A DNA stretch of 64,000 nt from Bacteroidales bacterium (GTDB taxonomy: Bacteria > Bacteroidota > Bacteroidia > Bacteroidales > UBA932). How positions within the stretch are numbered: position 1 is the first letter of the stretch; each line of letters starts with the position of its first letter. This document shows, one piece after another, positions 18,200-40,204 of this stretch. The DNA lies in the NCBI GenBank assembly GCA_017429475.1, contig JAFROX010000006.1:126008-190007 (forward strand), given 5' to 3'. A model generated the notes under the pieces. That model did not search any database. It saw only the letters and a program-made list of their open reading frames with translations, and was not told the DNA's origin. Made by a program: the position numbers and the translations under genes.

Positions 18200-18207
18200 T
18201 AACTTTG
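18200..18207 (+). promoter_or_regulatory. Candidate -7 promoter box (TAACTTTG) for the response-regulator/kinase operon
   Basis: Exact TAnnTTTG match 31 nt upstream of the ATG at 18238. It overlaps the left arm of the 18205-18223 palindrome. Confidence 0.35.
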
Positions 18208-18223
18208 TAAAGTTTCTTTACAA
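18205..18223. promoter_or_regulatory. Perfect palindrome TTGTAAAG-TTT-CTTTACAA, candidate operator
   Basis: 8-3-8 inverted repeat 15 nt upstream of the response-regulator start. The same TGTAAAG core recurs four times plus one inverted copy at 20494-20547. Confidence 0.45.
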
Positions 18224-18237: not shown

Positions 18238-19587
18238 ATGGCATCGAAAATCGGTAAGATACTGGTGGTGGACGACAACCTGGGAATACGCAGGACGCTT
18301 GAAATCCTGCTGCCGCTGCATTTCGAGCAGGTGAAGACGATTCCGTCGCCTGCGACTCTGGTGGCCTCTCTGGAGCAGTTCCGCCCGGACGTGGTGCTGC
18401 TCGATATGAATTTCAACACATCCATCAATACGGGCAACGAAGGCCTTTACTGGGCAGGTGAAATCAAGAAGATGGTGCCGGACGTCGAGGTGGTGCTGTT
18501 TACTGCATATGCTGACATAGCGCTTGCAGTGGAAGGAATGAAGCGCGGAGCCTTCGACTTCATCGTCAAGCCCTGGGACAACGAAAAGCTGATTGAAGTG
18601 CTGACGGCTGCACGGGACAAGGCCCGCAAGGCGATGAAGCGTGATGTCAGGACAAATCCGAGTCAGGCTGACAGCAATGCTATGTTCTGGGGCGGCTCAA
18701 AGTCTATGGCTGCCATACTGAGGACTGTCGAAAAGATCGCTCCCACGGATGCCACGGTCCTCATCACAGGTGAGAACGGTACGGGAAAGGACGTGCTTGC
18801 CCGCGAGATTCACTCCCGCAGCCTGCGCAGCAGGAAGCAGATGGTGGCGGTCGATGCCGGCGCCATCACCGAGACGCTTTTCGAGAGCGAGCTCTTCGGT
18901 CACGTGAAAGGAGCCTTCACCGATGCACACGCCGACCACGTGGGCAAGTTCGAGCAGGCCGACGGAGGTACGCTGTTCCTCGATGAGATCGGCAACATTC
19001 CGCTGCACCTACAGGCAAAGTTGCTGAGGGTTCTCCAGAACCGCAGCGTGGTGAGGGTAGGAGGCACTCAGGCCATTCCGGTGAACATCAGGCTGATCTG
19101 TGCCACCAATATGGATTTGGAGCAACTGGTGCGCGAAGGACGTTTCCGCGAGGACCTCTATTACCGCATCAATACAGTGCACATCGCCCTTCCTCCGTTA
19201 AGGGAAAGGAAGGAAGACATCGCTCCGCTTGCCCAGATGTTCCTGGAGAGGTTCGCCCTGAAATACCACCGCCCGCTGTCGGGACTTACCCCGGATGCGG
19301 CGGCGATGCTTACCGAGAACCGCTGGAGCGGCAACATCCGCGAACTGGGCAACTGCATAGAGAAGGCAGTGATCCTTTCGGAGGGCAACGTCCTTACTGC
19401 AAACGATATCCAGCTGGAGGCCGCCAAGCCTGCCGGCAAGACCATAAAGGCAGCCAGCGAAGCTGAGGAGGAACGGCTGGTCCGCGAGGCTATGGAGCGC
19501 ACGGACGGGAACATCTCCGCAGCGGCGAAGATGCTCGGAGTCAGCCGTCCGACCCTGTACGCAAAACTTAAAAAGTACGGTCTATGA
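18238..19587 (+). CDS. Sigma-54-dependent (NtrC/Fis-family) response regulator
   Basis: Receiver domain (ILVVDDN...VVLLDMNF...KP), AAA+ domain with Walker [24 protein letters not shown] (GAFTGA-type sigma-54 contact loop) and FLDEIG, plus a C-terminal Fis-type HTH ([22 protein letters not shown]). Confidence 0.9.
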
Positions 19588-20465
19588 CGTTCACAGTGTG
19601 GCATATCGTAGGTGCTTGCGTCATTGTGGCTGTCGTAGCTGCGGTGACAGCAACGCTCAGGACCAGACGCAAGGCCATCAAGAAGGTCTCCTATATGATG
19701 GATGCCCTGGAGGATGGGGAACTCAATTTCCGCTTCAAGGACAGCAACAAGTTCAACCGCACGCTGAACCGTATCCGCACCATTTTCGAGACCCAGAGGC
19801 AGGCCCACGAGCAGGATTCCTGGACCAAGCTTATACGCGTGCTGACCCACGAGATAATGAACACCGTGTCGCCTATTGCGTCTCTCTCCGATGCGATGGC
19901 AAAGTCGGTCGATGAGAACGGCCGCAGCGAGCTTGACCTCAAGGCCGGTCTGGAGACTATCTCCGATTCGTCCAAGAACCTGATCGATTTCGTGCAGACC
20001 TACCGGCAGCTCTCCGGAGTTGCTAAACCTGTCCGCAAGGCGCTGGACCTCCAGGAACTGATGGACAGCATCATCGGCCTGAACACCGAATTTGCGGCTG
20101 CCTGCGGTGCAGAGTGCCGCTATCATCCCGAGGAACCGGACCTTATGATCTATGCCGACGAGGGCCAGATCTCCCAGATTCTCATCAACCTTATCAAGAA
20201 CGCCCTGCAGGCCGGAGCGAAGCACGTCGACATCAGCGCCCGGATGGGCAAGGACGACGAGGTGATAGTGCTGGTGGCCAACGACGGCGAACCTATTCCT
20301 CCCGCCGCACAGGAACAGATCTTCATACCCTTCTATACTACAAAAAAGGAAGGCTCAGGCATAGGCCTGAGCATTTCCCGCCAGATAATGCGTAACCACA
20401 ACGGCAGCATAGAGCTCGACTCCAGCGACGCCGGCCGCACCGCCTTCCGTCTGGAGTTCAGGTAG
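19584..20465 (+). CDS. Histidine kinase with one N-terminal TM and no extracytoplasmic sensor domain
   Basis: The start overlaps the regulator stop (ATGA). Single TM WHIVGACVIVAVVAAVTATL beginning at residue 6. H-box LTHEIMNTVSPI, N-box LINLIKNALQA, G-boxes NDGEPIP and GSGIGLSISRQIM. Confidence 0.88.
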   Translation: MTFTVWHIVGACVIVAVVAAVTATLRTRRKAIKKVSYMMDALEDGELNFRFKDSNKFNRTLNRIRTIFETQRQAHEQDSWTKLIRVLTHEIMNTVSPIASLSDAMAKSVDENGRSELDLKAGLETISDSSKNLIDFVQTYRQLSGVAKPVRKALDLQELMDSIIGLNTEFAAACGAECRYHPEEPDLMIYADEGQISQILINLIKNALQAGAKHVDISARMGKDDEVIVLVANDGEPIPPAAQEQIFIPFYTTKKEGSGIGLSISRQIMRNHNGSIELDSSDAGRTAFRLEFR

Positions 20466-20493
20466 GCCCCAGACTTCAGTTCCGCCAGCATAG

Positions 20494-20547
20494 TGTAAAG
20501 CGGAATTGTAAAGAGAAAAGTGTAAAGAGTTGTAAAGACCTTTACAC
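20494..20547. promoter_or_regulatory. Array of four direct TGTAAAG heptamers plus one inverted copy (last pair forms TTGTAAAG-AC-CTTTACAC); candidate enhancer-binding sites and/or weak terminator
   Basis: TGTAAAG occurs at 20494, 20507, 20521 and 20531, and CTTTACA at 20540, in the 184-nt gap between the kinase stop and the TolC start. It is followed by TTTTTCGTTTTT. Confidence 0.45.
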
Positions 20548-20649
20548 TTTTTCGTTTTTGCGCATTAGGCTTACCTACTGACAATCAGTAATTTGGCTAT
20601 TTTGGTATAATGGATGTTCATTTTTGGCACAAGAAGATTCATTTCATAC

Positions 20650-21984
20650 ATGAACAAATTTATTTTCATTTGGTTTTTTGGTGTTGTCTTCGGTGCCTGC
20701 ATACCTTCTATGCAGGCCTGGGGACAGACTATGACGCTCCGTGACTGCATGGAGTACGCAATTTCCAACTCTACGAAGATCCGCATCCAGCAGGCTGCGA
20801 CTGGAGACGCACAGATAGACCGAAGGGATGCCGCATTGGCACTATTCACTCCCAATATCAGCGCTCAGACCTATGCCTACTACAACTTCGGCCGCAGCAT
20901 CGACCCGCAGACCAACACATATTTCAACACTACGTCGTTCCACAACAACTACGGGGTTTCGGCAGGCTACGACCTGTTCGACGGCTTCAAGGCTGTGAAC
21001 AACTTCAAGATATCCAGAACCGGAATGCTGATAGCCGATTCTCAGGAGAAACAGGTGGAGGCCGACATCTGCCTGGCGGTGATGGAAGCCTACTACAATG
21101 TGGTCTACTACAAGAGGCTCTGCGATGTATACGAAGAGCAGGTGGCTACAGCGGAGCAGGCGCTCACCAAGGCGCGCAGGCAGGAAGAACTGGGGCAGAA
21201 GGGCCACGCCGACGTCATCCAGATGGAGGCTGACCTTGCCGACCGCAGGTATGACCTCACCAATACCTACAATATGTATTGCGACCAGAAGATGACTCTT
21301 GCAGACCTGATGTTCTGGCCGGTGGATGAAGAACTGACGATAGACACTTCGATGCCGGAGTGGAGGCTCGATCCCGTGGCCTCGGAAGCCGTCGTGGACT
21401 TTGCCCTTGACAATAATCCTGCAGTGAGGATAGCGTCGCTTCAGGAACTGAATGCCCGCCGGGAGTTGAACACCGCCAGATGGCAGGTGCTGCCGTCGCT
21501 TGGTGTCTATGCCGGATGGAATACAAGTTACTACTCATATGAAGGTTCGGCGACGGCTTCCTTCCCCGACCAGTTCCGCAACAACAGCGGTGAGTATGTG
21601 GAGCTTTCTCTCTCCATTCCCATATGGAGCAGGCTGGGCAAGCACTCTGCCATTGCCCGTAAGAAACACGCGCTGACCAAGGCTTCTGCCACGCTCGACC
21701 AGAAACGCCGCGACGTGGAGAGCGAAGTGCGCCGTGCCATCCAGGACCGTGACGGCGCCGCGACTGCCTACCAGCAGGCTCAGCGCAAGGCCGAGGTGCA
21801 GCAGGAGGCCTACAGCCTCAACCTCAAGAAACTCGAGCAGGGCCTCATCTCTCCGCTGGAGTTCCAGACCGCGAACAACAACTACCTTAAATCACGCGCC
21901 GACGAAATGAACAGCCTCTTCAAATACCTCATCAAGCAGGCTGTGGTGAAATACTACAACGGCGTCGAATATGTAAATCAATAA
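20650..21984 (+). CDS. TolC-family outer-membrane efflux protein
   Basis: I prefer the ATG at 20650 (MNKFIFIWFFGVVFGACIPSMQAWGQ signal peptide) over the track start at 20614. The mature N-terminus MTLRDCMEYAISNS is typical of OMF proteins, and two coiled/barrel repeats are present. Confidence 0.85.
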   Translation: MNKFIFIWFFGVVFGACIPSMQAWGQTMTLRDCMEYAISNSTKIRIQQAATGDAQIDRRDAALALFTPNISAQTYAYYNFGRSIDPQTNTYFNTTSFHNNYGVSAGYDLFDGFKAVNNFKISRTGMLIADSQEKQVEADICLAVMEAYYNVVYYKRLCDVYEEQVATAEQALTKARRQEELGQKGHADVIQMEADLADRRYDLTNTYNMYCDQKMTLADLMFWPVDEELTIDTSMPEWRLDPVASEAVVDFALDNNPAVRIASLQELNARRELNTARWQVLPSLGVYAGWNTSYYSYEGSATASFPDQFRNNSGEYVELSLSIPIWSRLGKHSAIARKKHALTKASATLDQKRRDVESEVRRAIQDRDGAATAYQQAQRKAEVQQEAYSLNLKKLEQGLISPLEFQTANNNYLKSRADEMNSLFKYLIKQAVVKYYNGVEYVNQ

Positions 21985-21990
21985 GAAATT

Positions 21991-23247
21991 ATGGATAAGA
22001 TCATCGAAAAGAAAACAGGCTGGCGCGTGGCGTTTACCAAGAAGGCTCTGCCCTGGTGGCTCGGAGCACTGTTGCTGGCATTCATAGTATATCTGGTCGT
22101 ACGGCCCAACAACAAGACCTTGAGGGTGGATAAAGACACAGTCACCATCTCAAGCGCCGTGATGGGCGAGTTCAACGACTACATCCGCATCAGCGGCCGG
22201 GTGCAGCCGATGACCACCGTTCAGCTGAGCCCGCAGGAAGGCGGCATCGTGGAGAAGATCCTCATCGAAGAAGGTTCACCTGTTAAGGCCGGGGATGCGA
22301 TCCTCATCCTGAACAACGACAACCTGGACCTGCAGATACTGAACTCAGAGGCCGAACTGGCCGAGAAGGAGAACATCCTCCGCAACACCCAGATCCAGAT
22401 GGAGCAGCAGAAGTTGGACGTGCGCCAGAACGAGTTGGAATACGGCACGCAGGTCGACCGTATGCGCCGTGCCTACGAGCAGCAGAAAGCCCTCTACGAC
22501 GAGAAACTCATCGCAAAGGAAGATTACCTGAAGGCTGAGGAGGACTACAGGCTTGCCAGCCAGAAATATGAACTTATCCGCGAACGCTCAAGGCAGGACA
22601 GCCTCTACCGCGGCACGCAAATCGACCGTATGGAAGAGAGCCTCGACAATATGCTGCTCAATATGCAGATGATCCGCAAGCGCAAGGGCAACCTCATCGT
22701 GAAGGCCCCCATCGACGGCGAACTCGGCCTGCTTGACGTCGTACTCGGCCAGAGCATAGCCAGCGGCACCAAGATAGGCCAGGTCAACTCAGTCGGAACA
22801 TATAAGGTGGAAGCACAGATCGACGAGCATTACATCGACCGCGTCGTCGCAGGCCTCGAAGCCACTTTCGAGCGCCAGGGCGAGACCTATGCCACCAGCA
22901 TCCGCAAGGTCTATCCTGAGGTGCGCGACGGCAAGTTCCAGGCTGACTTCAAGTTCGAGGGCCAGCAGCCCGACAACATCCGCGCAGGCCAGACATACTA
23001 TCTGAACCTCCAGCTGGGCCAACCCGAGGAGGCTGTTATAATCCCCCGCGGCACTTTCTACCAGAAGACAGGCGGAAAATGGATATATGTGGTTAACAAG
23101 GAAGGCACCAAAGCCGTCAAGAGAGAGATACGCATCGGCCGCCAGAACCCGCAGTACTATGAGGTGCTGGAAGGCCTGGAGCCCGGCGAGAAGGTCATCA
23201 CTTCCGGATATGAGACGTATGGTGACAGTGATGTTTTGGTATTCTAA
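21991..23247 (+). CDS. HlyD/MacA-type periplasmic adaptor (membrane fusion protein)
   Basis: N-terminal TM, lipoyl-like segment GGIVEKILIEEGSPVKAGDAILILNN, a long coiled-coil, and a beta-barrel/MP-domain tail. Confidence 0.85.
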   Translation: MDKIIEKKTGWRVAFTKKALPWWLGALLLAFIVYLVVRPNNKTLRVDKDTVTISSAVMGEFNDYIRISGRVQPMTTVQLSPQEGGIVEKILIEEGSPVKAGDAILILNNDNLDLQILNSEAELAEKENILRNTQIQMEQQKLDVRQNELEYGTQVDRMRRAYEQQKALYDEKLIAKEDYLKAEEDYRLASQKYELIRERSRQDSLYRGTQIDRMEESLDNMLLNMQMIRKRKGNLIVKAPIDGELGLLDVVLGQSIASGTKIGQVNSVGTYKVEAQIDEHYIDRVVAGLEATFERQGETYATSIRKVYPEVRDGKFQADFKFEGQQPDNIRAGQTYYLNLQLGQPEEAVIIPRGTFYQKTGGKWIYVVNKEGTKAVKREIRIGRQNPQYYEVLEGLEPGEKVITSGYETYGDSDVLVF

Positions 23248-23250
23248 GCG

Positions 23251-25578
23251 ATGAAAAGTTTTTGGAATTTTCTTAAGAAGAACAAGCTCTATGGGGCCAT
23301 CAACATCATAGGCCTCACGGTCTCGATGGCGTTCGTGCTCCTGCTGGCAGTATATGTCCAGCGTCAGTTGTCCACGGATTCTTTCCAGGAGAATGCCGAC
23401 CGGATATTTGTCATTGCCAACGAGAACGACCTTACGATGGGATATTGGCTGGACAAGCATCTGAAAAACCAATTTCCGGAGATTGAGAAGGGATGCTGCG
23501 TCGCCAATATGTCTTCGGCCTCGCCATTCCATATTGACGGAGAAGGAGGAGTGGTTGTCCATGGCCGGATGATGTCGGCCGACAGCACTTTCTTCGACAT
23601 ATTCAGCTATGAACTGGCGGCCGGCAGCAAGGCCGACTGGCACGTTTCCTGGGACCGCTGTATGATCAGTGAGGAATTCGCAAACGCCCATTTCGGGGAC
23701 AAGGACCCTATAGGCAGACAGCTTTATTCCGAGGAAGGCGGCACCAACCTGACCGTCTGCGGCGTGATGAAGGACTTCGGCAACTCCGTCCTCAAGACTC
23801 CGGATGTGCTGGTCCGCGGAGAGATGATGCCGAAGACCAATCCTGCCCACGATGAGTATATGAGCAATGCCGCGGGCGGGATTTGTTTCGTGATGACATA
23901 TCCTGGTGCCGACCTTTCTGCAAAGAAGGGGGATCTGCTGAACTGGCTGGAAGAAAACTTCTGGGTATATAAGAGCAATCACGACCAAGTCCGCATCATC
24001 CCGCTGAGAGAATTGTATTTCCTCGATGAAGGCAATTTTGACTGGTCTGAAACGGTTCAAACCGGCAACCGTGACTTCGTGAACCTGCTGCTGGCGATGT
24101 GCCTGCTTCTGCTGGCCTTCGCAGTGCTCAACTATATAAATATGACAACGGCCCTGACGGGCTTCCGTGCCAAGGAGATGGCCACCCGCAGGCTTGTCGG
24201 AGCTGATAAAAGCGGCATTTTCCTGAAGGTCATTGCAGAGAGTACCATCATCTGCGGCATCTCGATGCTGCTGGCCATCCTGCTGGCAGAAGGGCTTGCG
24301 CCGCTGGCTTCCCGTCTTCTGGCATATCCGGTATCCATTTTCAAGGCAGTGAGTCCGGTTAATGTGTTGCTGGTGCTGGCATTCATCGCTGTGCTCGGCA
24401 TCTTGGCCGGCATCGTTCCCGCATTGCTTATCCAGCGCGCCCAGCCCATCGAGATCGTCCGGGGAACGCTCCGGCTCAAGACAAAAACCGTCTATAGCAA
24501 AGTCATCATCGTCCTGCAGAATGTGGTTTCTGTCGTGATGCTGGTGAGCGCCCTGACGATGGGCCTCCAGATCCGGCATCTGATTACGGCCGACCTGGGA
24601 TACAACACGAAAGACATCCTTGTCATCGAAAATGACTTCGGACAAAGCGGCCAGCTCCGCCCGCTGCTGGACCGGCTGAGAGAAGAAACCTGCGTGGAGG
24701 AAGTTGGGCAGGGCAACGGCATTCCGCTGGAAGGAACGAATAACGTCACTATGGAAGTTGGCACCGGCAACTGGGTGTCGTTCCAGCAGATTCAGGGCGA
24801 CGACAAGTATTTCCAGATTCTGGGACTGAAGGAAAAGCAGGACAATCACCAGCGAGCCTGGTGGCTGAACGAATACGCCTTCAAACTGATAGGTATTGAT
24901 GAGTCGGAAACGGAATATGTGACTTCTATGGACGGCAGTTTGCCCATCGGCGGCGTTTACTACGATTTCAAGGTGCGCCCGCTCGAATCGGCCCAAAGCG
25001 CGGCAATGGTCTACAACTGGAAGGAAAGTCCGGATGACAATTACCCCTGGGTGCTGGTGGTCAAGACCAACGGTGACCAGAATGCCGCCCGCAAGAAAGT
25101 TGAGGCAGTTGTGGAAGAAGTGTTCCCGGGCAGAGCGTTCGTGGGGGCATATATCGAGGAGATGATAGAAGACGGCTTCAAAGACGAAAGCCGCGTGCTG
25201 AACATCGTGCTCATCTTCACGCTGCTGTCCATTCTGGTAAGCGCGCTGGGTCTCTTCGCTATGAGTTCATACTATATGCAGCAGGAAATCCGCAGCGTGT
25301 CGGTCAAGAAGGTCTTCGGCGCCGAGTATTCAGGCGTGCTGAAGGATCTGGTGCTGGCGTTTATGAAGATGATGGGCATCGCCTTCGTCATCGGAGTGCC
25401 GATTGCCTGGTTCATTATGAACCGCTGGCTCTCGGGCTACGGCCACCGCATCAGTCTCCACTGGTGGATTTTCGTCCTGGCCGGCCTTGTAGTCGCCCTG
25501 ATTGCCATCATATCCGTTCTCTACCAGAGCGTCAAAACCGCCCGGACCAATCCGGCAGAAGCATTGAAGAAAGAATAG
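23251..25578 (+). CDS. ABC permease 1, MacB/FtsX type with two (periplasmic domain + FtsX) halves
   Basis: 775 aa. N-terminus is MKSFWNFLKKNKLYGAINIIGLTVSMAFVL. FtsX cores are at roughly aa 280-400 and 650-770. The C-terminus is KTARTNPAEALKKE. Confidence 0.85.
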   Translation: MKSFWNFLKKNKLYGAINIIGLTVSMAFVLLLAVYVQRQLSTDSFQENADRIFVIANENDLTMGYWLDKHLKNQFPEIEKGCCVANMSSASPFHIDGEGGVVVHGRMMSADSTFFDIFSYELAAGSKADWHVSWDRCMISEEFANAHFGDKDPIGRQLYSEEGGTNLTVCGVMKDFGNSVLKTPDVLVRGEMMPKTNPAHDEYMSNAAGGICFVMTYPGADLSAKKGDLLNWLEENFWVYKSNHDQVRIIPLRELYFLDEGNFDWSETVQTGNRDFVNLLLAMCLLLLAFAVLNYINMTTALTGFRAKEMATRRLVGADKSGIFLKVIAESTIICGISMLLAILLAEGLAPLASRLLAYPVSIFKAVSPVNVLLVLAFIAVLGILAGIVPALLIQRAQPIEIVRGTLRLKTKTVYSKVIIVLQNVVSVVMLVSALTMGLQIRHLITADLGYNTKDILVIENDFGQSGQLRPLLDRLREETCVEEVGQGNGIPLEGTNNVTMEVGTGNWVSFQQIQGDDKYFQILGLKEKQDNHQRAWWLNEYAFKLIGIDESETEYVTSMDGSLPIGGVYYDFKVRPLESAQSAAMVYNWKESPDDNYPWVLVVKTNGDQNAARKKVEAVVEEVFPGRAFVGAYIEEMIEDGFKDESRVLNIVLIFTLLSILVSALGLFAMSSYYMQQEIRSVSVKKVFGAEYSGVLKDLVLAFMKMMGIAFVIGVPIAWFIMNRWLSGYGHRISLHWWIFVLAGLVVALIAIISVLYQSVKTARTNPAEALKKE

Positions 25579-25600
25579 AAATACAATAAAACATATAACA

Positions 25601-26281
<681 letters not shown>

Positions 26282-26320
26282 GTGCGCCCGCCGTCCGGTA
26301 TTTACGGACGGTAGGAGCAC
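26282..26320 (+). repeat. Intergenic hairpin repeat, copy 1
   Basis: GTGCGCCCGCCGTCCGGTATTTACGGACGGTAGGAGCAC. It starts at the first base after the ATPase stop, and the CCGTCCG/CGGACGG stem is extended by flanking pairs. Confidence 0.8.
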
Positions 26321-26332
26321 TAAAGAACAGAA

Positions 26333-28669: not shown

Positions 28670-28670
28670 T

Positions 28671-31043: not shown

Positions 31044-31045
31044 AA

Positions 31046-31083
31046 GTGCACCCGCCGTCCGGAGATTACGGACGGCAGGAGCG
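31046..31083 (+). repeat. Intergenic hairpin repeat, copy 2
   Basis: GTGCACCCGCCGTCCGGAGATTACGGACGGCAGGAGCG, followed by the conserved leader AAAAAGAGATAAAAATG. Confidence 0.8.
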
Positions 31084-31097
31084 AAAAAGAGATAAAA

Positions 31098-33488
31098 ATG
31101 AAGAGCTACCTGAAATTCCTGTCCCGAAACAAGCTGTACACCGCCATCGAGGCAGTGGGGCTGGCGGTGAGCCTTGCGTTTGTGATCATGATAGGCTCAT
31201 CCATCCGGGATCAGTTGGGAATTGTTTACAACGTGCCTGACCATGATAATTTGTATCTAGTCGGTCCGGCATCCGGTGGCAGTATTGTCGGAGAATATCG
31301 TGTGAAAGAGGAACTTGCATCCATTCCGGAAATCCGGGAAACAGCTGCTTTCACTATTGAACAGGCTATGGTCCAGATTGCTGGAGAGAATCGATTAACT
31401 GCAATCGGAATGATGGATCCCAATCTTCTGGAGATGATTCCGTTGAGAGTAATATCGGGCAGTAACGATCCCTTTGAAAGCGGGGAAGGAGTTGCTATTA
31501 CGGTTTCGGCTGCCAGACGTTTCTTTCCTGATCGGAATCCGGTCGGAGAAGCTCTGGGCTGGCTGGAAACCCCAACCTCCCAGCCTGTCCCGACCCGGAT
31601 TACCGCCGTTGTCGATGACCCTTCCTATTCCATCCTGGGTGATTTTGATTTCGTCGTGAATCTGCAGTCGCGGCTCTGCCCCCTGGCAACGGAAATACGG
31701 GAATCCGATCTTGGAAATAACGGGCGTGGATATACCGCCTATATTTTCTCCCGCCTTCAAGAAGGCATTCAGGTGGATTCCGTATTGAACGCTCGTATCA
31801 GGAATCTGCACGGTTGGTTCTTGAGCCGGGATGAAAGAGACGCCCGGATGCTGACGGCATACGACGACATTTACTTGTCGAATCAAACACAATACGCCCT
31901 TCGTCAGGGTAAACGGATGTATCTGTCCGTATTGATTGCACTGGTCATACTTTTGCTTGTCTCCGCCATACTGAGTTATGTAAATCTGTCTATGGCCGTC
32001 ACCGGAGACCGCGCCCGTGAGATGGCAACGCGACGCTTGGTCGGAGAAGACCAGCATCACGTTTTCCAGCGTGTGATTGGCGAGTCTCTGCTTTTCGTCT
32101 CTGTCTGCTATCTGTTTGCAATCCTTTTGGCCTGGTGGATTGCTCCGGGACTGGACAGCATCCGTCCAACAGGGCTCAATGTGCCCTTCCGCATCCGTTT
32201 GGACGGAGTTTTCTGGATAATTTCAGTCGTACTGGTGCTTTTGGTTGGAGCGCTCGCCGGTATCGTCCCTGCGGTCGCCTGTGCCTCCTTTCGGCCTCTG
32301 GATGTGGTTTCGGGCAAGATACGCCGTAAACGCAAGATGTACTTCGGTAGAATCTGCATTATCCTGCAAAGTGTGCTGGCCGTTGTTCTGATTGTGATGA
32401 CCATCACACTCGAACGGCAGTTGAACTATTTGAAGAATGCCGATCTGGGGGTGGATATGCAAGAGGACTTGTTCTTCTACATTCCGGGATTTGTCGAGAA
32501 AGGACAAGATTTGAATGCACTGGGTGACTTGTTCAAGTCTTGCCCGCTCGTTCTGGAAATCGGCGGGGCGACAGGATATCCGACGTATATTCAATATATG
32601 ACCTCCGGGACACAGGGGATGTTGAAGACCATCAGGTGCGACTCCACGGCTTTTTCAATGCTTGGATTCCGTCTGGAAGAAAGCTTTGCTCAAACGGTAG
32701 GATCAGTTTTTCTCACCCGTTCGGCGGCGAACAAGTATGGTGTGACCCGTGATAATGCCAATCCGGCGAGTCTGTATTGGGGGTACGAGCGTTATCCTGA
32801 CGCTTATCCCTCCATTGTCGGAGGAATCATTCAGGATTTCCGAACCATACCGGTCAATGGAACGGACAGGTATAACGATGCGGATGCTGTACCTATCGTG
32901 GAGGTGGGAGCTGCAACTGAGTATCCGGGAGCTTTTCTGATTCGGACGACCCCCGACCACCGGGCTTTTGAGAAGTGGTTCAGGGAGACCATCGGGGCGT
33001 ATTGCAAAGAGAAGTATGGTTTCTCGAACGTATTCGATATGGAATATTCGAAAAACGATTATATAGAAGATTTGATTGCCGCGGACCATGACGATATGCG
33101 TCGTTATGTACGGCTGGTCGAGATATTCTGCCTGATTTCCATCCTGTTGTCATTGCTGGACCTTGTGGCGATGAGTTCCCATTATGCAGGTGTCAATGCC
33201 AAGAACATCGCTATCCGCAAAGTCTTCGGTGGCACTGTAGCATCCGAGACCAACAGAGGAGTGCAGACTTATATGTTATGGATCGGGATTTCGCTGCTGA
33301 TTGCCATTCCGATTTCGGTTGTGGTCAGTGAACGTTTCCTGCAGAACTATGCTGAACATATAACTGGTTATTGGTGGATATTCGTTGCGGCCGCCTTGTT
33401 GACCGTGCTGCTTTCGCTCGCCTCCGTCCTCTGGCAAACCCTCAAGGCTGCCCGGACCAATCCGGCTATTGAACTGAAGAAAGAATAA
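31098..33488 (+). CDS. ABC permease 4, double-FtsX type (subtype A)
   Basis: 796 aa, with the same first 30 aa and the same C-terminal LKAARTNPAIELKKE as permease 3. Confidence 0.85.
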   Translation: MKSYLKFLSRNKLYTAIEAVGLAVSLAFVIMIGSSIRDQLGIVYNVPDHDNLYLVGPASGGSIVGEYRVKEELASIPEIRETAAFTIEQAMVQIAGENRLTAIGMMDPNLLEMIPLRVISGSNDPFESGEGVAITVSAARRFFPDRNPVGEALGWLETPTSQPVPTRITAVVDDPSYSILGDFDFVVNLQSRLCPLATEIRESDLGNNGRGYTAYIFSRLQEGIQVDSVLNARIRNLHGWFLSRDERDARMLTAYDDIYLSNQTQYALRQGKRMYLSVLIALVILLLVSAILSYVNLSMAVTGDRAREMATRRLVGEDQHHVFQRVIGESLLFVSVCYLFAILLAWWIAPGLDSIRPTGLNVPFRIRLDGVFWIISVVLVLLVGALAGIVPAVACASFRPLDVVSGKIRRKRKMYFGRICIILQSVLAVVLIVMTITLERQLNYLKNADLGVDMQEDLFFYIPGFVEKGQDLNALGDLFKSCPLVLEIGGATGYPTYIQYMTSGTQGMLKTIRCDSTAFSMLGFRLEESFAQTVGSVFLTRSAANKYGVTRDNANPASLYWGYERYPDAYPSIVGGIIQDFRTIPVNGTDRYNDADAVPIVEVGAATEYPGAFLIRTTPDHRAFEKWFRETIGAYCKEKYGFSNVFDMEYSKNDYIEDLIAADHDDMRRYVRLVEIFCLISILLSLLDLVAMSSHYAGVNAKNIAIRKVFGGTVASETNRGVQTYMLWIGISLLIAIPISVVVSERFLQNYAEHITGYWWIFVAAALLTVLLSLASVLWQTLKAARTNPAIELKKE

Positions 33489-33490
33489 AA

Positions 33491-33528
33491 GTGCGCCCGC
33501 CGTCCGGAATTTTCGGACGGCAGGAGCG
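33491..33528 (+). repeat. Intergenic hairpin repeat, copy 3
   Basis: GTGCGCCCGCCGTCCGGAATTTTCGGACGGCAGGAGCG, followed by the same leader AAAAAGAGATAAAAATG. Confidence 0.8.
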
Positions 33529-33542
33529 AAAAAGAGATAAAA

Positions 33543-35837
33543 ATGAAGAGCTACCTGAAATTCCTGTCCCGAAACAAGCTTTACACCGCCATCGAGGCGG
33601 TGGGGCTGGCGGTGAGCCTGGCGTTTGTGATTATCATCGGTTCGTATGTGTGGCAGCAATATGCTGTGACGAGGGAGAACCCGGATCGGGAGAGGATATA
33701 TGTGCCCGGTATGCCGGATTTCCCGGCGTTGACATACGGTTTCCCGGATGTCATTGCGGATATACCCGAAATAGAGGCTGTGTCCAGACTTTGTGCCGTC
33801 CGGGTATATCCTGTCATTCGGGGAGAGTCGGTAGAAGCTGAAAGCGCCGGCGTGGAACCGGCTTTCTTCGAGATTTGTCCCCAGTTCCGTTTTGTGGAAG
33901 GTTCCGCTGATGTGCTGTCTGCTCCCTCCAACGTCATCATTACAGCTTCATTCGCCAACAGGCATAACCTTTCGGTGGGCGATGCTCTGGAGATTAGTGA
34001 AGCCAACTATGTGGTAGGCGCCATTCTGGAGGACCTGAAGGGGACGGTAATAAAGCCTTATGAAATCTTCCGGAATGCCGCAGTTTACAAGAACAACTGG
34101 CAGTTGTTCGACAATTTCGGCAGCACAACCGTTTTCATCAAAGTCCGTCCCGGAACGGAAAGGCAAGATTTGTATGACAAACTGGAGGCCGTATGCAAAA
34201 AGGTCTATCCCGGCATATATGGTCAAAGTTTCTTCGAGACCCTGGTGCTGTCGCGCTACGATGAACTGTTCTTCGCGGAAACTGATGGTATATTCCGGCA
34301 CGGGGACAAAGGGACGCTGAGGGTTCTGTCGCTGGTAGGACTGCTCCTGCTTCTGTCGGCAATCCTCAACTACGTCAACCTTTCCGTTGCACTCACCGGG
34401 AAGCGGGCTAAGGAGATGGCTGTAAGGCAATTGTCCGGGGCATCGAGAAGAGGAATTATCTGGAAATACGTGGCTGAGTCCATCGCGTTCACCGCTGTAT
34501 GCTTTGCAGCCGGCCTCTTGCTGGCGGAAGCCTTCTGCCCGGCTATGAATGCACTGCTCAACAATCCGGATGTTCCGATCCGTGTCATCTGGGCTCCGGG
34601 GTATTTGCTCGCGTACGTCGCCATCATTCTGACGGTCGGGGCGTTCTGCGGCATCTTCCCGGCGATGATGGCCGGCCGCTACAAGCCTGTCGATGTGATG
34701 AAGGGAGGATACCGGCGCCGGAGCAAGATGGTGTTCAGCAAGGTTTTCATCGTGCTGCAGAATGCTCTGGCAGTCATCCTGATAGCGCTCGCCATCACTA
34801 TGGAAGCCCAGATGCGCAAGACGCAGTCACGGCCGATGCATTGCGATATCGCGGACAAATACTATCTGGTCAGTTATTCCTATGACTATGACGACTCCTT
34901 CAAGAATGTACTAGAAACGCTTCCGGCTGTAAAGCGGGTGGGGAAGAGCAATGGTGTGCCCGGAAGCATCCGGGGAGGGCAGTACAGTACCACACGGGAC
35001 GGACAGGATATTCTGTATAGGCTTATCCGGATGGACAGCACTGCTTTTGCGATGTTCCGGTTCGAGATACTTGAAGACTACCGCACCCCGCTGTTCAACA
35101 GCGTATGGTTCTCCGACGAAAGTTTTGCAGCAAGCGGCTTCGACAGCGAATACCACGAAATAGGGACGCTCTCCCAGCGTACGCAAGGCTGTAACCAGAT
35201 GGCCGGCGTTTTCAAAGCGTTCCCGACCAATTCGGCCAATATTGGAGAGGATGATTATGCCATCATCTCCGTGATGAGGACTGAGGACATCTCGTCCAAC
35301 AGCTGGGTGATTGAGACGACCGGGGACAGGAAAGAGGCTGCAAGACAGATTAATGATGCTTATGAAGCATATGCGAAAGAACATAATGTTATTGAGACGG
35401 AAGCGTTCTGGGTCGATGAGCACATAGCCGAGGCCTGGAAGCCCGCCCGCAACAATATGCGCCTTGTGGAAATCTTTATGTTTCTCTCCATCCTCATCGC
35501 ATTGCTCGGCCTGGTAGCTATGAGTACATATTACGCCGATGAGAAATCCCGTGACATTGCCGTCCGGAAGGTTTTCGGCGGAACTGTTGACTCCGAGGCG
35601 AGGAGAACGATCCGGGACTATATGGTGCTTGTCGGCATCGCCTGCGTCATCGGCATTCCGGTAGCCGTCTATGCCGCCCAGGAATACCTCAAAGACTTCA
35701 TTTACCGGCTCGAAGGTTACTGGTGGATATTCGTCGTGGCTGTGCTGCTCACCGGCATCATCGCTTTTGTCTCTGTCATCTGGCAGGTGCTCAAAGCTGC
35801 CCAGACCAATCCCGCTATTGAACTGAAGAAAGAATAA
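33543..35837 (+). CDS. ABC permease 5, double-FtsX type (subtype A)
   Basis: 764 aa, with the same first 30 aa as permeases 3 and 4. The C-terminus is LKAAQTNPAIELKKE. Confidence 0.85.
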   Translation: MKSYLKFLSRNKLYTAIEAVGLAVSLAFVIIIGSYVWQQYAVTRENPDRERIYVPGMPDFPALTYGFPDVIADIPEIEAVSRLCAVRVYPVIRGESVEAESAGVEPAFFEICPQFRFVEGSADVLSAPSNVIITASFANRHNLSVGDALEISEANYVVGAILEDLKGTVIKPYEIFRNAAVYKNNWQLFDNFGSTTVFIKVRPGTERQDLYDKLEAVCKKVYPGIYGQSFFETLVLSRYDELFFAETDGIFRHGDKGTLRVLSLVGLLLLLSAILNYVNLSVALTGKRAKEMAVRQLSGASRRGIIWKYVAESIAFTAVCFAAGLLLAEAFCPAMNALLNNPDVPIRVIWAPGYLLAYVAIILTVGAFCGIFPAMMAGRYKPVDVMKGGYRRRSKMVFSKVFIVLQNALAVILIALAITMEAQMRKTQSRPMHCDIADKYYLVSYSYDYDDSFKNVLETLPAVKRVGKSNGVPGSIRGGQYSTTRDGQDILYRLIRMDSTAFAMFRFEILEDYRTPLFNSVWFSDESFAASGFDSEYHEIGTLSQRTQGCNQMAGVFKAFPTNSANIGEDDYAIISVMRTEDISSNSWVIETTGDRKEAARQINDAYEAYAKEHNVIETEAFWVDEHIAEAWKPARNNMRLVEIFMFLSILIALLGLVAMSTYYADEKSRDIAVRKVFGGTVDSEARRTIRDYMVLVGIACVIGIPVAVYAAQEYLKDFIYRLEGYWWIFVVAVLLTGIIAFVSVIWQVLKAAQTNPAIELKKE

Positions 35838-35844
35838 TGATATA

Positions 35845-38175
35845 ATGATACTACGAAACCTGAAGAGCCTTATCCGCCGCTATCCGGTGGCGGTTGTCCT
35901 GAACTTCACTGGACTGGTGGCGGCGCTGCTTGCCTTTGCCCTGATATTCCTGCAAGCCGATTATGAGCTGTCTTTTGACAAGTGCCATCCGACGGCCAAC
36001 CGGGTTTTCCGGGCCGATAAGAAAGGCGATGAGACGCTGTTCAGGAATATCCTGCCGAGAGGCTTTGCCGACGATATCATCGGCTCGTCGGCCCACATCG
36101 AGGCGGGATGTACGTATATGCCGTTCCTGGGTGAGATCTATTTCTCAGTGGCAGAAGACGGAAAGGATCCCATCGGTTACAAGCGTGATCTGAAGTTCGT
36201 GTCGGAGCGTTTCATCGACGTGTTCGGCATCAAGATGATCGAGGGCGATTCACACGCGCTGGAAGGTCCCAATTCGGTGATTATTCCCCAGTCGCTGGCG
36301 GAAAACCTGTTCCCGGGAGAACGGGCGATTGGCAAGTTGCTGAAGACGGACGCCAAGTATATGGAGGTCCCCCGCGAGATAACTGTGACCGGCGTGTATG
36401 AGGACTTCCCGACGAACACACAACTTGGGAATGACCTGTACCTGACCGTCGGCGATGTCCAGAAAGGGAGTTATGGGGGAGCCAATTTCGTCTGCTATCT
36501 GCTGCTGGATGATGCCGGCAACTCTCAGGCTGTAGCCGATGAGTTCAACGACCATTTCGACTTTCCTCCGCAAGGAGACTGGCTTACGCCCATCGAGCTG
36601 GTGCCGCTTACCAGCATATACTTCCGGAACGAGGGTAATGTCTATAAGAGCGGCAGCCGTTCGCAGCTGCTTCTGCTCATTGCCATCGCTATCTTGATCC
36701 TGGGCATCGGCCTGATCAACTTTACCAATTTCTATGTGGCGCTGACGCCGCTGCGCATCCGGAGCGTGAACCTGCAGAAGATCCTGGGGTCTTCGACTCG
36801 GAGGCTGCGTGCCCTGGTGGTGGCGGAGGCGGTGATATGGTGCATCTGCGCCTTTGGGGTGTCCGCCCTGCTGCTGGGACCGGTTTCCGATGCGCTGCTG
36901 ACCCGGGGCGTGCTGATGCAGTCCTTCTCCTTCGGCAAGCATTGGGGCCTGCTGCTGTTCGTCGGGACGGTCGCGGTGGCCACCGGTTTCATTGCCGGTA
37001 TCTGGCCGGGCATCTATTCCACATCGGGCCAGCCGGCGATGATCCTGCGGGGCAACTATGGCCTGTCGGCCTCCGGAAAGAACCTCAGGACCATTTTGGT
37101 GGGCGTGCAGTTCGTTATTTCAACTGCGCTGCTCATCTTTGTTCTGTTCGTCCAGCGTCAGAGCAAGTTCATGCAGGAGTATCCCTGCGGCTACGACAAG
37201 AATAACCTGGCGGTGGTGAATATCGGTGGCGAGAACGGCCGGGAGAAGGCCGATTGGCTGCGGGAGAGGCTGTGCGCACTTCCGGAGGTGAAGGACGTGG
37301 CCTATGCGAACGATCTCATCGGCAGCTCGGATACTTATAGCACGCAGGGTGCGGATTTCGGTGAAGGAGAGGTTCTGATGAGTATGATATACTGCAGCTG
37401 GAACCTGCCGCAGGTGCTGGGGCTGGAGGTGCTTGAAGGCCGGGATTTCAACGAAGGCGAGTTCGGCCCATACCTTTTGACATCGGATATGCAGTCATAT
37501 GGTGCTGATATGGACACAGGGGGAATGGATGGCGAGACTCCAATCGTGGGCTTCGTCAATAATGTGAATATCACTTCTATGCGCAAGGCTGATTCTCCTG
37601 TGGCGTTCCAGGTGCATACCAGCAAGGGACACTCGATGCCGTTCGCATATATCCGGCTTACGGAGGGGGCGGACCGTCTGGCAGCCACCGATAAAATCGG
37701 GAACATCCTCCGGGAGATGGACCTTACGATGCCGTACGAGGTGCAGTTCTACGATGCCATCGGCAAGAACCTTTACAGCGGCGAGGAGCGCCTGCGGCTG
37801 GCCGTATGGCTGTTCTCCCTGCTGGCAGTGCTGCTCTCGTTGGTGGGCATCTGGGGCCAGGTGCTGATGGATGTGCAGTACAAGCGGATGGAGATTTCGG
37901 TGAAGCGGGTGTTCGGGGCCGATATGGGCCAGATTACTTCGGAGGGCTTGATGCTGTATCTTAGGACGGTGGCCATCTGTTATGTGATTGCGGCGCCCAT
38001 CGGCTGGCTGGTGGTGAAGTATTACCTGCAGCAGTTCGCGCACAGGGTGGGCTTTATGCCGGGGGTGTTCCTGCTGGCGCTGGTGATTGTGGGGCTGCTA
38101 TGCGCCGCCGTGGTGCTGTATCACTACCTTAAGACCGCCAGGATGAATCCGGCGGAGGCGCTGAAGAATGAGTAA
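35845..38175 (+). CDS. ABC permease 6, double-FtsX type (subtype B)
   Basis: 776 aa. N-terminus MILRNLKSLIRRYPVAVVLNFTGLVAALLAF. C-terminus LKTARMNPAEALKNE. Two FtsX cores. Confidence 0.85.
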   Translation: MILRNLKSLIRRYPVAVVLNFTGLVAALLAFALIFLQADYELSFDKCHPTANRVFRADKKGDETLFRNILPRGFADDIIGSSAHIEAGCTYMPFLGEIYFSVAEDGKDPIGYKRDLKFVSERFIDVFGIKMIEGDSHALEGPNSVIIPQSLAENLFPGERAIGKLLKTDAKYMEVPREITVTGVYEDFPTNTQLGNDLYLTVGDVQKGSYGGANFVCYLLLDDAGNSQAVADEFNDHFDFPPQGDWLTPIELVPLTSIYFRNEGNVYKSGSRSQLLLLIAIAILILGIGLINFTNFYVALTPLRIRSVNLQKILGSSTRRLRALVVAEAVIWCICAFGVSALLLGPVSDALLTRGVLMQSFSFGKHWGLLLFVGTVAVATGFIAGIWPGIYSTSGQPAMILRGNYGLSASGKNLRTILVGVQFVISTALLIFVLFVQRQSKFMQEYPCGYDKNNLAVVNIGGENGREKADWLRERLCALPEVKDVAYANDLIGSSDTYSTQGADFGEGEVLMSMIYCSWNLPQVLGLEVLEGRDFNEGEFGPYLLTSDMQSYGADMDTGGMDGETPIVGFVNNVNITSMRKADSPVAFQVHTSKGHSMPFAYIRLTEGADRLAATDKIGNILREMDLTMPYEVQFYDAIGKNLYSGEERLRLAVWLFSLLAVLLSLVGIWGQVLMDVQYKRMEISVKRVFGADMGQITSEGLMLYLRTVAICYVIAAPIGWLVVKYYLQQFAHRVGFMPGVFLLALVIVGLLCAAVVLYHYLKTARMNPAEALKNE

Positions 38176-38213
38176 TTGCTCCCGCCGTCCCAAAATCGCG
38201 GACGGCAGGAGCG
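38176..38213 (+). repeat. Intergenic hairpin repeat, copy 4a
   Basis: TTGCTCCCGCCGTCCCAAAATCGCGGACGGCAGGAGCG, immediately after the permease-6 stop. Confidence 0.75.
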
Positions 38214-38227
38214 AAAAAGGGGGTAAA

Positions 38228-38266
38228 ACGCGCCCGCCGTCCGGAATTTATGGATGGCAGGAGCAC
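38228..38266 (+). repeat. Intergenic hairpin repeat, copy 4b (degenerate, with a leader remnant but no following permease)
   Basis: ACGCGCCCGCCGTCCGGAATTTATGGATGGCAGGAGCAC. The right arm reads TGGATGG instead of CGGACGG, so the stem survives only through G-U pairs on the plus-strand RNA. It is followed by AAAAGAATAAAA, which resembles the AAAAAGAGATAAAA leader. Confidence 0.7.
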
Positions 38267-38343
38267 AAAAGAATAAAACCACTGGAGACGTATTTCTGCT
38301 TTTTGTGTGTTTTATAGACAAACGAAAACAAAACAAAAACGCA

Positions 38344-40043: not shown

Positions 40044-40124
40044 CTTGCGCTCTGAGCCGAAATCGCCGCGGAGCGCAAGTGGATTGCCACATAAGCGAGT
40101 TGTAAGACACTCGCCTTGCGCTCC
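40044..40124. other. Three-segment mutually exclusive pairing element (CTTGCGCTC / GAGCGCAAG / CTTGCGCTC) in the divergent intergenic region
   Basis: Segment 2 (40070-40079, GGAGCGCAAG) can pair with segment 1 (40044-40052) or with segment 3 (40115-40124, CTTGCGCTCC). An inner GCGAGT/ACTCGC stem lies between segments 2 and 3. Confidence 0.4.
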
Positions 40125-40204
40125 GATTTTCAAATAGGACAATTAAGAAAAATATTTGTATGGCTAAAAAAATTAGCTATATTCGCAAAAAGTTTAGTTG
40201 CGTT

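Follow-up and report, generated by a model that had tools for sequence, protein, structure and literature searches.

Six Duplicated Permeases and One ATPase in a Gut Bacteroidales Gene Block: a Candidate Shared-Engine Exporter

Can one ATP-binding cassette (ABC) ATPase, one periplasmic adaptor and one outer-membrane duct serve six different permeases? This question is raised by a block of co-oriented genes at positions 18238-38175 (+) of the window, meaning the whole 64,000-nt stretch of DNA analysed here, which derives from the genome of an uncultured ruminant-gut Bacteroidales bacterium. The block holds a two-component system, a TolC-family duct, a HlyD/MacA-type adaptor, six internally duplicated FtsX permeases (P1 to P6) and a single ATPase gene. 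This layout is real and far beyond chance, and it is common in this clade. Judging from the sequence comparisons reported below, the block would be a MacAB-TolC-like (type VII ABC) tripartite export system in which all six permeases run on one shared engine, and we regard this interpretation as probable, if by no means secure.

One ATPase gene among six duplicated permeases

The open reading frame (ORF) map, drawn for the 14-42 kb portion of the window, reproduces the earlier gene list on the forward strand, and the Pfam matches agree with it: a regulator, a kinase, a TolC homolog, an adaptor and six permeases of 764-796 amino acids (aa), with one ATPase of 226 aa lodged between the first two permeases, are all present as the first-pass annotation had described them. 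The ATPase (25601-26281 (+); ABC_tran, E = 7.2e-37) is of the LolD/MacB/DarD type, and its closest sequences in the PDB are Spr0694 (5xu1_A, E = 9e-70), MJ0796, MacB and LolD. It is preceded by P1 (23251-25578 (+), 775 aa) and followed by P2 (26333-28669 (+), 778 aa), P3 (28671-31043 (+), 790 aa), P4 (31098-33488 (+), 796 aa), P5 (33543-35837 (+), 764 aa) and P6 (35845-38175 (+), 776 aa). Every permease (6/6) matches Pfam MacB_PCD and has two FtsX stretches (PF02687; E = 1e-15 to 3e-24), an architecture that reads as (PCD + FtsX) twice over. When all eleven proteins of the block were compared by tblastn with the other 44 kb of the window, neither a second ABC ATPase nor a further FtsX permease was found.

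Upstream of the permeases, a 449-aa NtrC-type sigma-54-dependent response regulator (18238-19587 (+); Pfam Response_reg, Sigma54_activat with E = 2.8e-69, HTH_8) is followed by a 293-aa histidine kinase (19584-20465 (+); HATPase_c, E = 1.6e-21), whose start overlaps the regulator stop by 4 nt (ATGA). The TolC-family outer-membrane factor (Pfam OEP, E = 2.3e-47; TIGR01844 match) occupies 20650-21984 (+) if it has 444 aa, or 20614-21984 (+) if it has 456 aa. The ATG at 20650 is the likely start, both because gene callers chose the 444-aa start on identical metagenome contigs and because a promoter-like element overlaps 20614. The kinase-tolC gap is 148 nt with the longest ORF and, with the ATG at 20650, the 184 nt given by the first-pass annotation. 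The adaptor of 418 aa (21991-23247 (+); HlyD_3, HlyD_D23) carries a transmembrane (TM) anchor at residues 19-37. From tolC onward the intergenic gaps are 6, 3, 22, 51, 1, 54, 54 and 7 nt, again within the range annotated earlier (1-54 nt). Terminator-like sites in the array do not exceed chance (21 found against 16.4 ± 4.4 expected) and, given also the tight gaps, a single transcript through the array is plausible.

The same ratio of permeases to ATPase recurs in related loci. A scan of 185,579 species genomes supplied 80 loci picked by ATPase similarity, and the high identity of their ATPases to the query (86-100%) reflects this manner of selection. Nearly all belong to metagenome-assembled genomes of gut or rumen Bacteroidales, many of them labelled Candidatus Cryptobacteroides, a label also carried by the nearest related loci, and ruminant-gut metagenome contigs hold identical or near-identical copies of the locus. 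The full-length subset comprises 30 loci with complete flanks of ±10 kb, and 29 of these have one LolD-type ATPase together with 0-5 duplicated permeases, usually 2-5, which bears out the earlier description of one ATPase per multi-permease array within that span. Five, four, three, two, one and zero complete duplicated permeases were counted in 5, 9, 7, 5, 2 and 1 loci, respectively, the counts being lower bounds set by the flank limit. A second ATPase gene is found in a few related loci (L059, L071, L072 and L086). The adaptor and TolC are single-copy, and their arrangement with the transporter is conserved. The position of the ATPase is variable; its neighbours can come from any of the three permease clades defined below, with no clade fixed beside it, and the three clades occur together in 12/29 related loci. 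Permease content and order vary even among close relatives. P4 is rare, and the pairs P2-P3 (1 nt apart) and P5-P6 (7 nt apart) tend to persist, the former in several related species and the latter in L043, L059 and L091. With P3 as the query, 5,058 clusters (50% identity representatives) were retrieved at E <= 1e-30, mostly of 770-800 aa.

Each permease is a fused pseudo-dimer of the type VII ABC fold, with eight TM segments and its two halves joined directly. Hydropathy gives the same pattern in all six, TM1-ECD1-TM2-4-TM5-ECD2-TM6-8, in which the periplasmic domains ECD1 and ECD2 are inserts of ~240 aa after TM1 and ~220 aa after TM5. In profiles built from 176 family members, the N-terminal half aligns with the C-terminal half (HHalign probability 99.8%, E = 2.7e-30) and ECD1 with ECD2 (99.2%, E = 3.5e-19). 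An AlphaFold2 (AF2) model of P3 (mean pLDDT 77.3, pTM 0.69) comprises two alpha/beta periplasmic domains and eight long TM helices; TM2 and TM6 are followed by short helices, and the chain closes with a C-terminal helix. Its alignment is shallow (28 sequences), since a profile search with the six paralogues again returned almost only P3 orthologues, and the confidence of the model is only moderate. Foldseek comparison of this model with the PDB gave a sole full-length match, Escherichia coli YbbP (9ge6_A, E = 4e-19), followed by MacB, Streptococcus pneumoniae Spr0695 and LolE/LolC, and then by BceB and HrtB. Matches to isolated periplasmic domains were 3ftj, 5lj8 and 3is6, the last from a permease of Porphyromonas gingivalis (TM-score 0.75 on the target). 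Three hallmarks of a type VII ABC permease are thus found: FtsX domains, a 4-TM unit with a Porter/Sabre-type periplasmic domain between TM1 and TM2, and an ATPase of the LolD/MacB/FtsE subfamily. The half-to-half alignment, the model and the Foldseek matches also agree with the earlier proposal that one chain corresponds to a MacB dimer or a LolC/LolE pair.

Pairwise identity among the six permeases is 18-44% over whole proteins, 19-64% in the TM bundles and 11-28% in the periplasmic domains. The last had been called essentially unrelated, a description that must be withdrawn, for they are homologous: ECD1 matches MacB_PCD in 6/6 permeases, and ECD1 and ECD2 align with each other as noted above. 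The conservation of the gene ends was seen correctly in that the first 36 residues of P3, P4 and P5 are 92-97% identical; the C-terminal motif of all six, however, is A[RQ]xNPxxxLKxE and not a literal ARTNP. Conservation was scored as the mean sum of squared residue frequencies per column over 176 complete permeases from the related loci, in P3 numbering. By this measure the highest value belongs to the cytoplasmic C-terminal tail (0.51) and the lowest to the periplasmic domains (0.21-0.22); TM1, TM2 and the two loops with the coupling helices, TM2-3 and TM6-7, lie between them at 0.34-0.35. Among the positions that are invariant or nearly so are R294, R301, G305, R701, G705, N782, P783 and E790. 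This pattern fits a common cytoplasmic partner combined with diversified periplasmic parts, although the contrast is moderate.

Clustering of the 176 permeases yields three deep clades: A, with P1, P3, P4 and P5 (80 members), B, with P2 (38), and C, with P6 (58). The earlier division into two subtypes therefore holds for A and fails for B, which had joined P2 and P6; these two are 21-23% identical to each other, no closer than either is to clade A. All six permease ORFs are intact, with orthologues of 75-98% identity in other species or strains. Against such orthologues, Nei-Gojobori dN/dS values are 0.045-0.15 for whole permeases (P1 ~0.10, P2 0.045-0.096, P4 0.15 against L093, P5 ~0.09), 0.03-0.25 for the periplasmic domains and 0.04-0.16 over the genes of the block. 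All six permeases are thus under purifying selection, with no sign of diversifying selection between orthologues, and the periplasmic differences reflect old paralogy. P6 is 93-94% identical to its counterparts in L001, L004, L005 and L006, though the operon is otherwise ~100% identical. Within the comparison to L001, 42 of the 55 residue differences fall in residues 450-650, the second periplasmic domain, and strain comparison of P6 gives a dS of 0.58 in this domain against 0.21 in the first. Residues 450-650 look like a local recombination tract that swapped one periplasmic domain.

A sigma-54-type regulatory footprint

The regulator has the parts of the NtrC family: a REC domain, an AAA+ sigma-54 domain with a GAFTGA-type loop, and a Fis-type helix-turn-helix. 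The loop reads GAFTDA, as annotated, and was located at residue 225. The kinase has a single N-terminal TM segment (residues 3-21) followed at once by cytoplasmic sequence, an arrangement that is the same in all orthologues. Lacking a periplasmic sensor domain, it has no part of its own with which to bind a ligand in the periplasm.

Two clusters of a short repeat accompany these genes. A perfect palindrome, TTGTAAAG-N3-CTTTACAA, at 18205-18223 ends 15 nt upstream of the regulator ATG and is a candidate site of autoregulation by the NtrC-type regulator. A group of five TGTAAAG/CTTTACA heptamers, four of them direct and one inverted, occupies 20494-20546, at an orthologous position conserved in 12 aligned loci, and constitutes a candidate enhancer (upstream activating sequence) for the same regulator. 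Together these two sites account for 7 of the 15 such heptamers in the window. Alignment of the kinase-tolC spacers of the 12 loci displays conserved repeated motifs, GTGTAAAG / CTTTACAC, and a second conserved block, TTTGGCAC-N5-(A/T)TG(C/T), lying ~60-100 nt downstream of the repeats.

This second block resembles a sigma-54-type -24/-12 promoter element. A census of all related loci found the element TGGCAC-N5-NTG[CT] 66 times on the transporter strand. In 42 of these 66 occurrences, distributed over ~40 loci, at least three TGTAAA/TTTACA half-sites lie 40-230 nt upstream, and nearly all of the 42 directly precede tolC or the first transporter gene. At the corresponding place the window has only a degenerate version, TGGTAT-N5-ATGT (20603-20617 (+)), where the relatives have TGGCAC-N5-NTG[CT]; an extra TGGCAC at 20625-20630 has no -12 partner. 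A search of the whole window for TGGCAC-N5-TTGC with two mismatches allowed was uninformative (54 found, 67 expected), and the promoter is visible only through phylogenetic footprinting. For the family, then, sigma-54 control is well supported by the conserved elements. For the window strain it is probable, the case being drawn from the relatives because its own -24 box is TGGTAT in place of TGGCAC and its -12 is TGT. The sigma-54 two-component control proposed in the first-pass annotation accordingly gains from the GAFTDA loop and from the conserved -24/-12 elements and repeats in ~40 loci, and loses some of its force through the degenerate -24 box of the window itself.

Hairpins, junction repeats and rearranged modules

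The transporter array is punctuated by a 55-nt hairpin element present in five copies, all of them inside the array and none in the other 44 kb of the window. The first copy, CCGCCGTCCG-N7-CGGACGGTAGG (26280-26334; -27.5 kcal/mol, z = -6.1), lies between the ATPase and P2, the second after P3 (31044-31098), the third after P4 (33489-33543), and the fourth and fifth stand in tandem after P6, at the end of the array (38174-38280). The core palindrome is CCGCCGTCCG-N7-CGGACGGCAGG, and folding energies range from -23 to -27.5 kcal/mol (z of about -5 to -6). The hairpins split the block into four modules, namely tolC-adaptor-P1-ATPase, P2-P3, P4 as a single gene between hairpins, and P5-P6.

These palindromes appear to follow the pattern of repetitive extragenic palindromes (REPs) and REP-associated transposases (RAYTs), because they are polymorphic between strains, occur in tandem at a 52-nt spacing and, in related strains, flank a Y1-transposase-like gene. 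In strains 98-99% identical over the operon, the copies that follow P6 and the ATPase are either missing or replaced: copy 1 gives way to unrelated sequence in L006, and copies 4 and 5 are absent in L004-L006, where homology ends with the stop codon of P6. When metagenomes were scanned for the hairpin, 11 stretches were found, mostly this operon in related strains and often with tandem copies 52 nt apart. In L095 (4328-5480) and L099 (2669-2750) the hairpins flank a gene matching Pfam Y1_Tnp (IS200-like HUH; 24.7 bits, cutoff 23). The window has a HUH (Y1) transposase-like gene of its own at 38954-39988 (-), encoding 344 aa with 25% identity to L095:4520-5380 (E = 5e-29); the HIH and YVxxN motifs of the two proteins are in register, and the window protein has no Pfam match of its own. 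The resemblance to REP/RAYT systems thus extends to short, GC-rich intergenic palindromes, often tandem and strain-polymorphic, beside a HUH Y1-transposase-like gene; in the window all five copies are confined to the transporter array. Other inverted repeats (CGGAGCGCAAG / CTTGCGCTCCG) lie just upstream of the window's transposase-like gene, at 40044-40125, and may be that gene's own REPs. An insertion bounded by REP hairpins is also seen between tolC and the adaptor gene in L095 (4137-6660) and L099 (1044-3180), where it encodes an extracytoplasmic function (ECF) sigma factor, a 161-aa protein, a Plug-domain protein and a RAYT-like gene.

Other roles for the hairpins were considered and set aside. 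A role as intrinsic terminators is rejected, as no U-tract follows them and terminator-like sites are at the chance level. A conserved operon-specific RNA is also rejected, because the sequence is absent from the 80 related loci and polymorphic between near-identical strains; the stem is conserved in sequence, which leaves little covariation to test. An Rfam scan of the block returned no family. A sub-threshold resemblance to the plant microRNA MIR1862 at 38176-38266, on both strands (36.4/27.9 bits against a gathering score of 84), is an artefact of two tandem palindromes folding into one long hairpin.

The junctions themselves are repeated. A 218-nt stretch that runs from the 3' end of P3 through the hairpin spacer into the 5' end of P4 (30981-31198 (+)) is 93% identical to its counterpart at the next junction, which spans the 3' end of P4, its hairpin spacer and the 5' end of P5 (33426-33643 (+)). 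Where residues are identical, the codons are also identical in 70-89% of cases at the ends of P3, P4 and P5, against 40-46% in the gene bodies. Because synonymous sites are more alike at the gene ends than in the bodies, the P3/P4/P5 junctions have been homogenised by recent gene conversion, beyond what constraint on the proteins alone would produce.

Rearrangements are seen at such junctions. In L091 (600-820) P2 runs straight into P5-P6, with the crossover inside the shared coding 5' repeat, and in L093 (380-700) P4 is placed after P6 and its two hairpins. Both are metagenome contigs; misassembly is nonetheless an unlikely source of these orders, since junction copies in the window share exact runs of at most 32-67 nt. 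Other species (L011, L012, L015, L038, L043 and others) bear repeated palindromes of their own at similar array junctions, for example GATTCCGGGTCAAGCCCGGAATG and GTCATTCTGAGCGAAGCGAAGAATC; modules bounded by hairpins thus recur even where the hairpin sequences are unrelated. The simplest cause of the rearrangements is homologous recombination at the junction repeats, as an integrase is absent from the window.

A proposed shared engine and its alternatives

The system closest in general plan is MacAB-TolC, with which the block has in common a LolD/MacB-type ATPase, an FtsX-type 4-TM unit with a Porter/Sabre-like domain, a TM-anchored HlyD/MacA adaptor, and a TolC-family duct and adaptor co-encoded with the transporter (gaps of 6 and 3 nt). 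MacB, however, is a homodimer with the ATPase fused at its N-terminus, whereas here the ATPase is separate, the permease halves are fused in one 8-TM chain, and there are six such chains per ATPase, adaptor and duct. Among named systems DarBCD (NF038008/NF038010/NF038007; PMC8442675) is the nearest, with a permease of ~777 aa, an adaptor and a separate ATPase of ~220 aa. It is described as a tripartite ABC exporter of darobactin in Photorhabdus, and its loss cuts darobactin titres two- to four-fold (PMC8442675). DarC is the best NCBIfam model for the adaptor (199.5 bits, cutoff 450) and DarD for the ATPase (284.6 bits, cutoff 375), which also matches MacB and LolD models; DarB, along with the ADOP model treated below, is the NCBIfam model nearest to the permeases and gives them 23.8-61.6 bits against a cutoff of 700. 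DarBCD differs in having one permease where the present block has six, and the genes of the block would be under sigma-54 two-component control. In a further departure from the darobactin cluster, no RiPP (ribosomally synthesised and post-translationally modified peptide) precursor or radical-SAM gene was found among the window ORFs scanned.

Arrays of duplicated permeases also have a name already, and the novelty implied in the first-pass annotation is correspondingly lower. TIGR03434, the 'ADOP family duplicated permease', comprises internally duplicated FtsX permeases of ~800 aa that form large paralogous families, with paralogues clustered beside other transporter genes in a Bacteroidota genome. 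The five permeases scanned score 146.6-182.8 bits against its cutoff of 622.3 and, as the scores are below the family cutoffs in both cases, the locus belongs to neither the ADOP nor the DarBCD family. ADOP proteins are named 'orphan' for having no ATPase gene beside them, whereas here an ATPase (25601-26281), an adaptor and TolC are embedded in the array. A comparable array has been reported in Psychroflexus torquis (Bacteroidota), where a 42-kb cluster with ten ADOP paralogues and other transporter genes is highly represented in the proteome, its function being unknown (PMC3914696).

Two further systems resemble the block in single features. E. coli YbbAP(-TesA) has a type VII permease that is a pseudo-dimer in one chain and carries two periplasmic domains, and YbbP is the best full-length structural match noted above. 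The YbbA:YbbP stoichiometry is 2:1, with a separate ATPase dimer, and YbbP has 10 TM helices, of which TM5-6 form a linker (PMC12646458). The permeases of the block have eight TM segments and no linker helices according to hydropathy and AF2, and YbbAP partners a hydrolase, TesA, in place of an adaptor and TolC, with one permease per ATPase. The BceAB-BceRS modules of Firmicutes, which deal with antimicrobial peptides, likewise combine a one-chain type VII permease with an ATPase encoded apart from it, and the two-component system next to them has a kinase devoid of an extracellular sensor domain. BceB differs from the present permeases, with their eight TM segments and two periplasmic domains, in having 10 TM helices with a linker pair (PMC5985334; PMC12646458) and one extracellular domain; moreover, the Bce regulator is OmpR-type and not sigma-54 dependent, and no adaptor or TolC is present. 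Contact between kinase and permease by analogy with Bce is pure conjecture.

Sharing of components is familiar among transporters, as in the multitask ATPases MsiK and FhuC and in the energy-coupling factor (ECF) module with its many S-components. To our knowledge, and in the literature searched, neither these cases nor the Anabaena duct mentioned next has fused type VII ABC permeases that draw jointly on one ATPase, one adaptor and one duct. The HgdD/TolC duct of Anabaena serves at least seven DevBCA paralogues (PMC8277102). The searched literature contains no functional study of a multi-permease, single-ATPase type VII system or of such arrays in Bacteroidota; a paper on salt tolerance and 'ABCTPP' deals with a gene fragment and was set aside.

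With these parallels in mind, the shared engine may be pictured as follows. The kinase would detect a cytoplasmic or membrane signal, or the transporter itself, and phosphorylate the regulator, which from the TGTAAAG repeats would switch on the sigma-54 promoter before tolC, so that one long transcript would run through permease 6. Each permease chain would hold a dimer of the single ATPase by way of its two coupling helices and the conserved C-terminal helix, at a permease:ATPase ratio of 1:2 as in YbbAP. ATP-driven mechanotransmission would shift the two periplasmic domains, and substrates from the periplasm or the outer leaflet would leave through an adaptor hexamer and TolC. Because the six permeases differ mainly in their periplasmic domains, they may be alternative specificity modules drawing on one pool of ATPase, adaptor and duct, and one ATPase, adaptor and duct common to all six is plausible. 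Over time, permease modules would be gained, lost and reordered, with breakpoints at the conserved junctions formed by homogenised gene ends and REP-like hairpins. In a stronger form of the same idea, the array would be a strain-variable specificity magazine in which the modules P2-P3, P4 and P5-P6 are shuffled at the junctions around a fixed engine while the kinase reads flux via the permeases in the manner of BceS. This stronger form is unlikely, and the notion that the kinase senses pump activity through the permeases, as BceS does, is speculative.

Several points weigh against a shared engine. The link of the six permeases to this particular ATPase, adaptor and duct is inferred from sequence. 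The view extends over 64 kb of the genome, so LolD-type ATPases may exist elsewhere, and the set of relatives was picked for similarity of the ATPase and covers no more than ±10 kb per locus. The stoichiometric demand is awkward, in that one gene copy each would have to supply two ATPase and six adaptor subunits per permease, and this for six permeases. In dN/dS the ATPase (0.07-0.085) shows no tighter constraint than the adaptor (0.04-0.05) and thus bears no special signature of constraint by multiple partners, an expectation that the dN/dS values leave unsupported. Finally, the window's own -24 (TGGTAT) and -12 (TGT) both depart from the element of the relatives, and the neighbouring genes in the window give no clue to a substrate.

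It is possible, though not likely, that the array has mixed functions, such that only the adaptor-adjacent permease or permeases form a TolC-linked pump and the others share the ATPase without adaptor or duct. The latter might act as extractors or mechanotransducers like LolCDE, YbbAP-TesA, BceAB or FtsEX, and could serve to protect a target, to control a periplasmic partner or to extract lipids or lipoproteins. Efflux pumps are in fact a minority among the type VII ABC systems characterised so far (PMC5985334; PMC12646458), and YbbP, the best structural match of P3, is a non-pump; relatives keep the adaptor and TolC single-copy while their permeases vary from 0 to 5, and the joint presence of three deep clades in 12/29 loci would suit different jobs. 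Yet the six permease genes follow tolC and the adaptor gene in a single compact, co-oriented block, genes for LolA-like, TesA-like or EnvC-like partners are not interleaved in it, and the adaptor and ATPase are nearest the DarC and DarD models of an exporter. A decidedly unlikely reading is that some permeases pair with LolD-type ATPases encoded elsewhere, which would make the one-engine picture an artefact of a single locus. Such ATPases could lie beyond the 64 kb of genome examined, the few relatives with a second ATPase gene (L059, L071, L072, L086) offer a precedent, and the 'orphan' naming of the ADOP family implies ATPases encoded in trans; but the window has no second ATPase, exactly one LolD-type ATPase accompanies up to five permeases in 29/30 full-length loci, and the cytoplasmic contact motifs are kept in all six permeases.

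Two other readings have far less in their favour. Tandem paralogues with near-identical junctions could suggest recent duplicates retained for dosage, or incipient pseudogenes, but this is scarcely credible for proteins only 18-44% identical overall. Near-identical periplasmic domains, which the first-pass annotation had named as the mark of dosage amplification, are ruled out by identities of 11-28%, and the decay it had likewise allowed for is ruled out by intact ORFs of 764-796 aa with dN/dS of 0.045-0.15. Each paralogue, moreover, has orthologues elsewhere at 75-98% identity (dN/dS 0.05-0.15), and the paralogues come from three deep clades, so that at the level of sequence this reading is refuted. 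An integron-like arrangement, in which the hairpins would be attC-type sites and site-specific recombination would move the cassettes, is equally improbable in spite of promoterless co-oriented genes separated by imperfect palindromes with a bulged base and of strain-to-strain differences in cassette content. The 64-kb window has no tyrosine-recombinase integrase, the hairpins have no attC core sites, the tandem 52-nt spacing and the Y1-transposase-like neighbour in related strains conform to the REP/RAYT pattern, and the L091 crossover falls inside the shared coding 5' repeat, away from a hairpin; with neither integrase nor attC features, the integron reading is rejected. A pump with one shared engine accordingly stays the interpretation we prefer, with the reservations given above.

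Elsewhere in the window, two tandem full-length serpin genes (13544-14785 (-) and 14887-16131 (-); Pfam Serpin, E ~1e-97 each) lie just upstream of the block, beside genes for a 456-aa beta-barrel-like protein and an ECF sigma factor (16148-18075 (-)). At 40160-44976 (+) a BlaI-type repressor (Penicillinase_R) and a BlaR1 peptidase_M56 with a C-terminal TonB_C domain are followed by a 961-aa CarboxypepD_reg protein. Adjacent genes at 48709-51531 (+) encode a 3-oxo-5-alpha-steroid 4-dehydrogenase-like protein, an Old Yellow Enzyme-type flavin oxidoreductase and a short-chain dehydrogenase, and could be a steroid or bile-acid modification cluster. Two paralogous membrane sensors (8856-11042 (-) and 44978-46930 (-)) combine a PDC/dCache domain, like that of methyl-accepting chemotaxis proteins, with a SpoIIE (PP2C) phosphatase, and the former has in addition a HATPase_c_2 domain like that of anti-sigma kinases.

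Duplicated FtsX/MacB-type permeases make up a very large family, and their arrays are common in Bacteroidota and Acidobacteria. The present locus looks ordinary but is well organised, and it belongs to a class that is widespread, has been noted before and is uncharacterised in function. Arrays of duplicated permeases were already described as the ADOP family, and DarBCD is the closest named system; what is new here is the regulatory footprint, the three-clade composition, the gene conversion and REP-bounded modules, and the strain-level cassette variation. As the first-pass annotation had supposed, the searched literature establishes no substrate, stoichiometry or signal for such arrays. The locus is compact, bringing regulator, kinase, enhancer/promoter, duct, adaptor, one ATPase and six permeases of three clades together in one operon, which makes the question of a shared ATPase directly testable. 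If the engine is not shared, this would be one more multi-paralogue efflux operon. If it is shared, the array would carry the shared-module logic of ECF transporters over to envelope-spanning type VII pumps and would offer gut and rumen Bacteroidales a cheap widening of their efflux or export range. A strain-variable magazine, should it prove true, would add a new principle of organisation to type VII ABC systems and would give a handle on the function of duplicated 'orphan' permeases.

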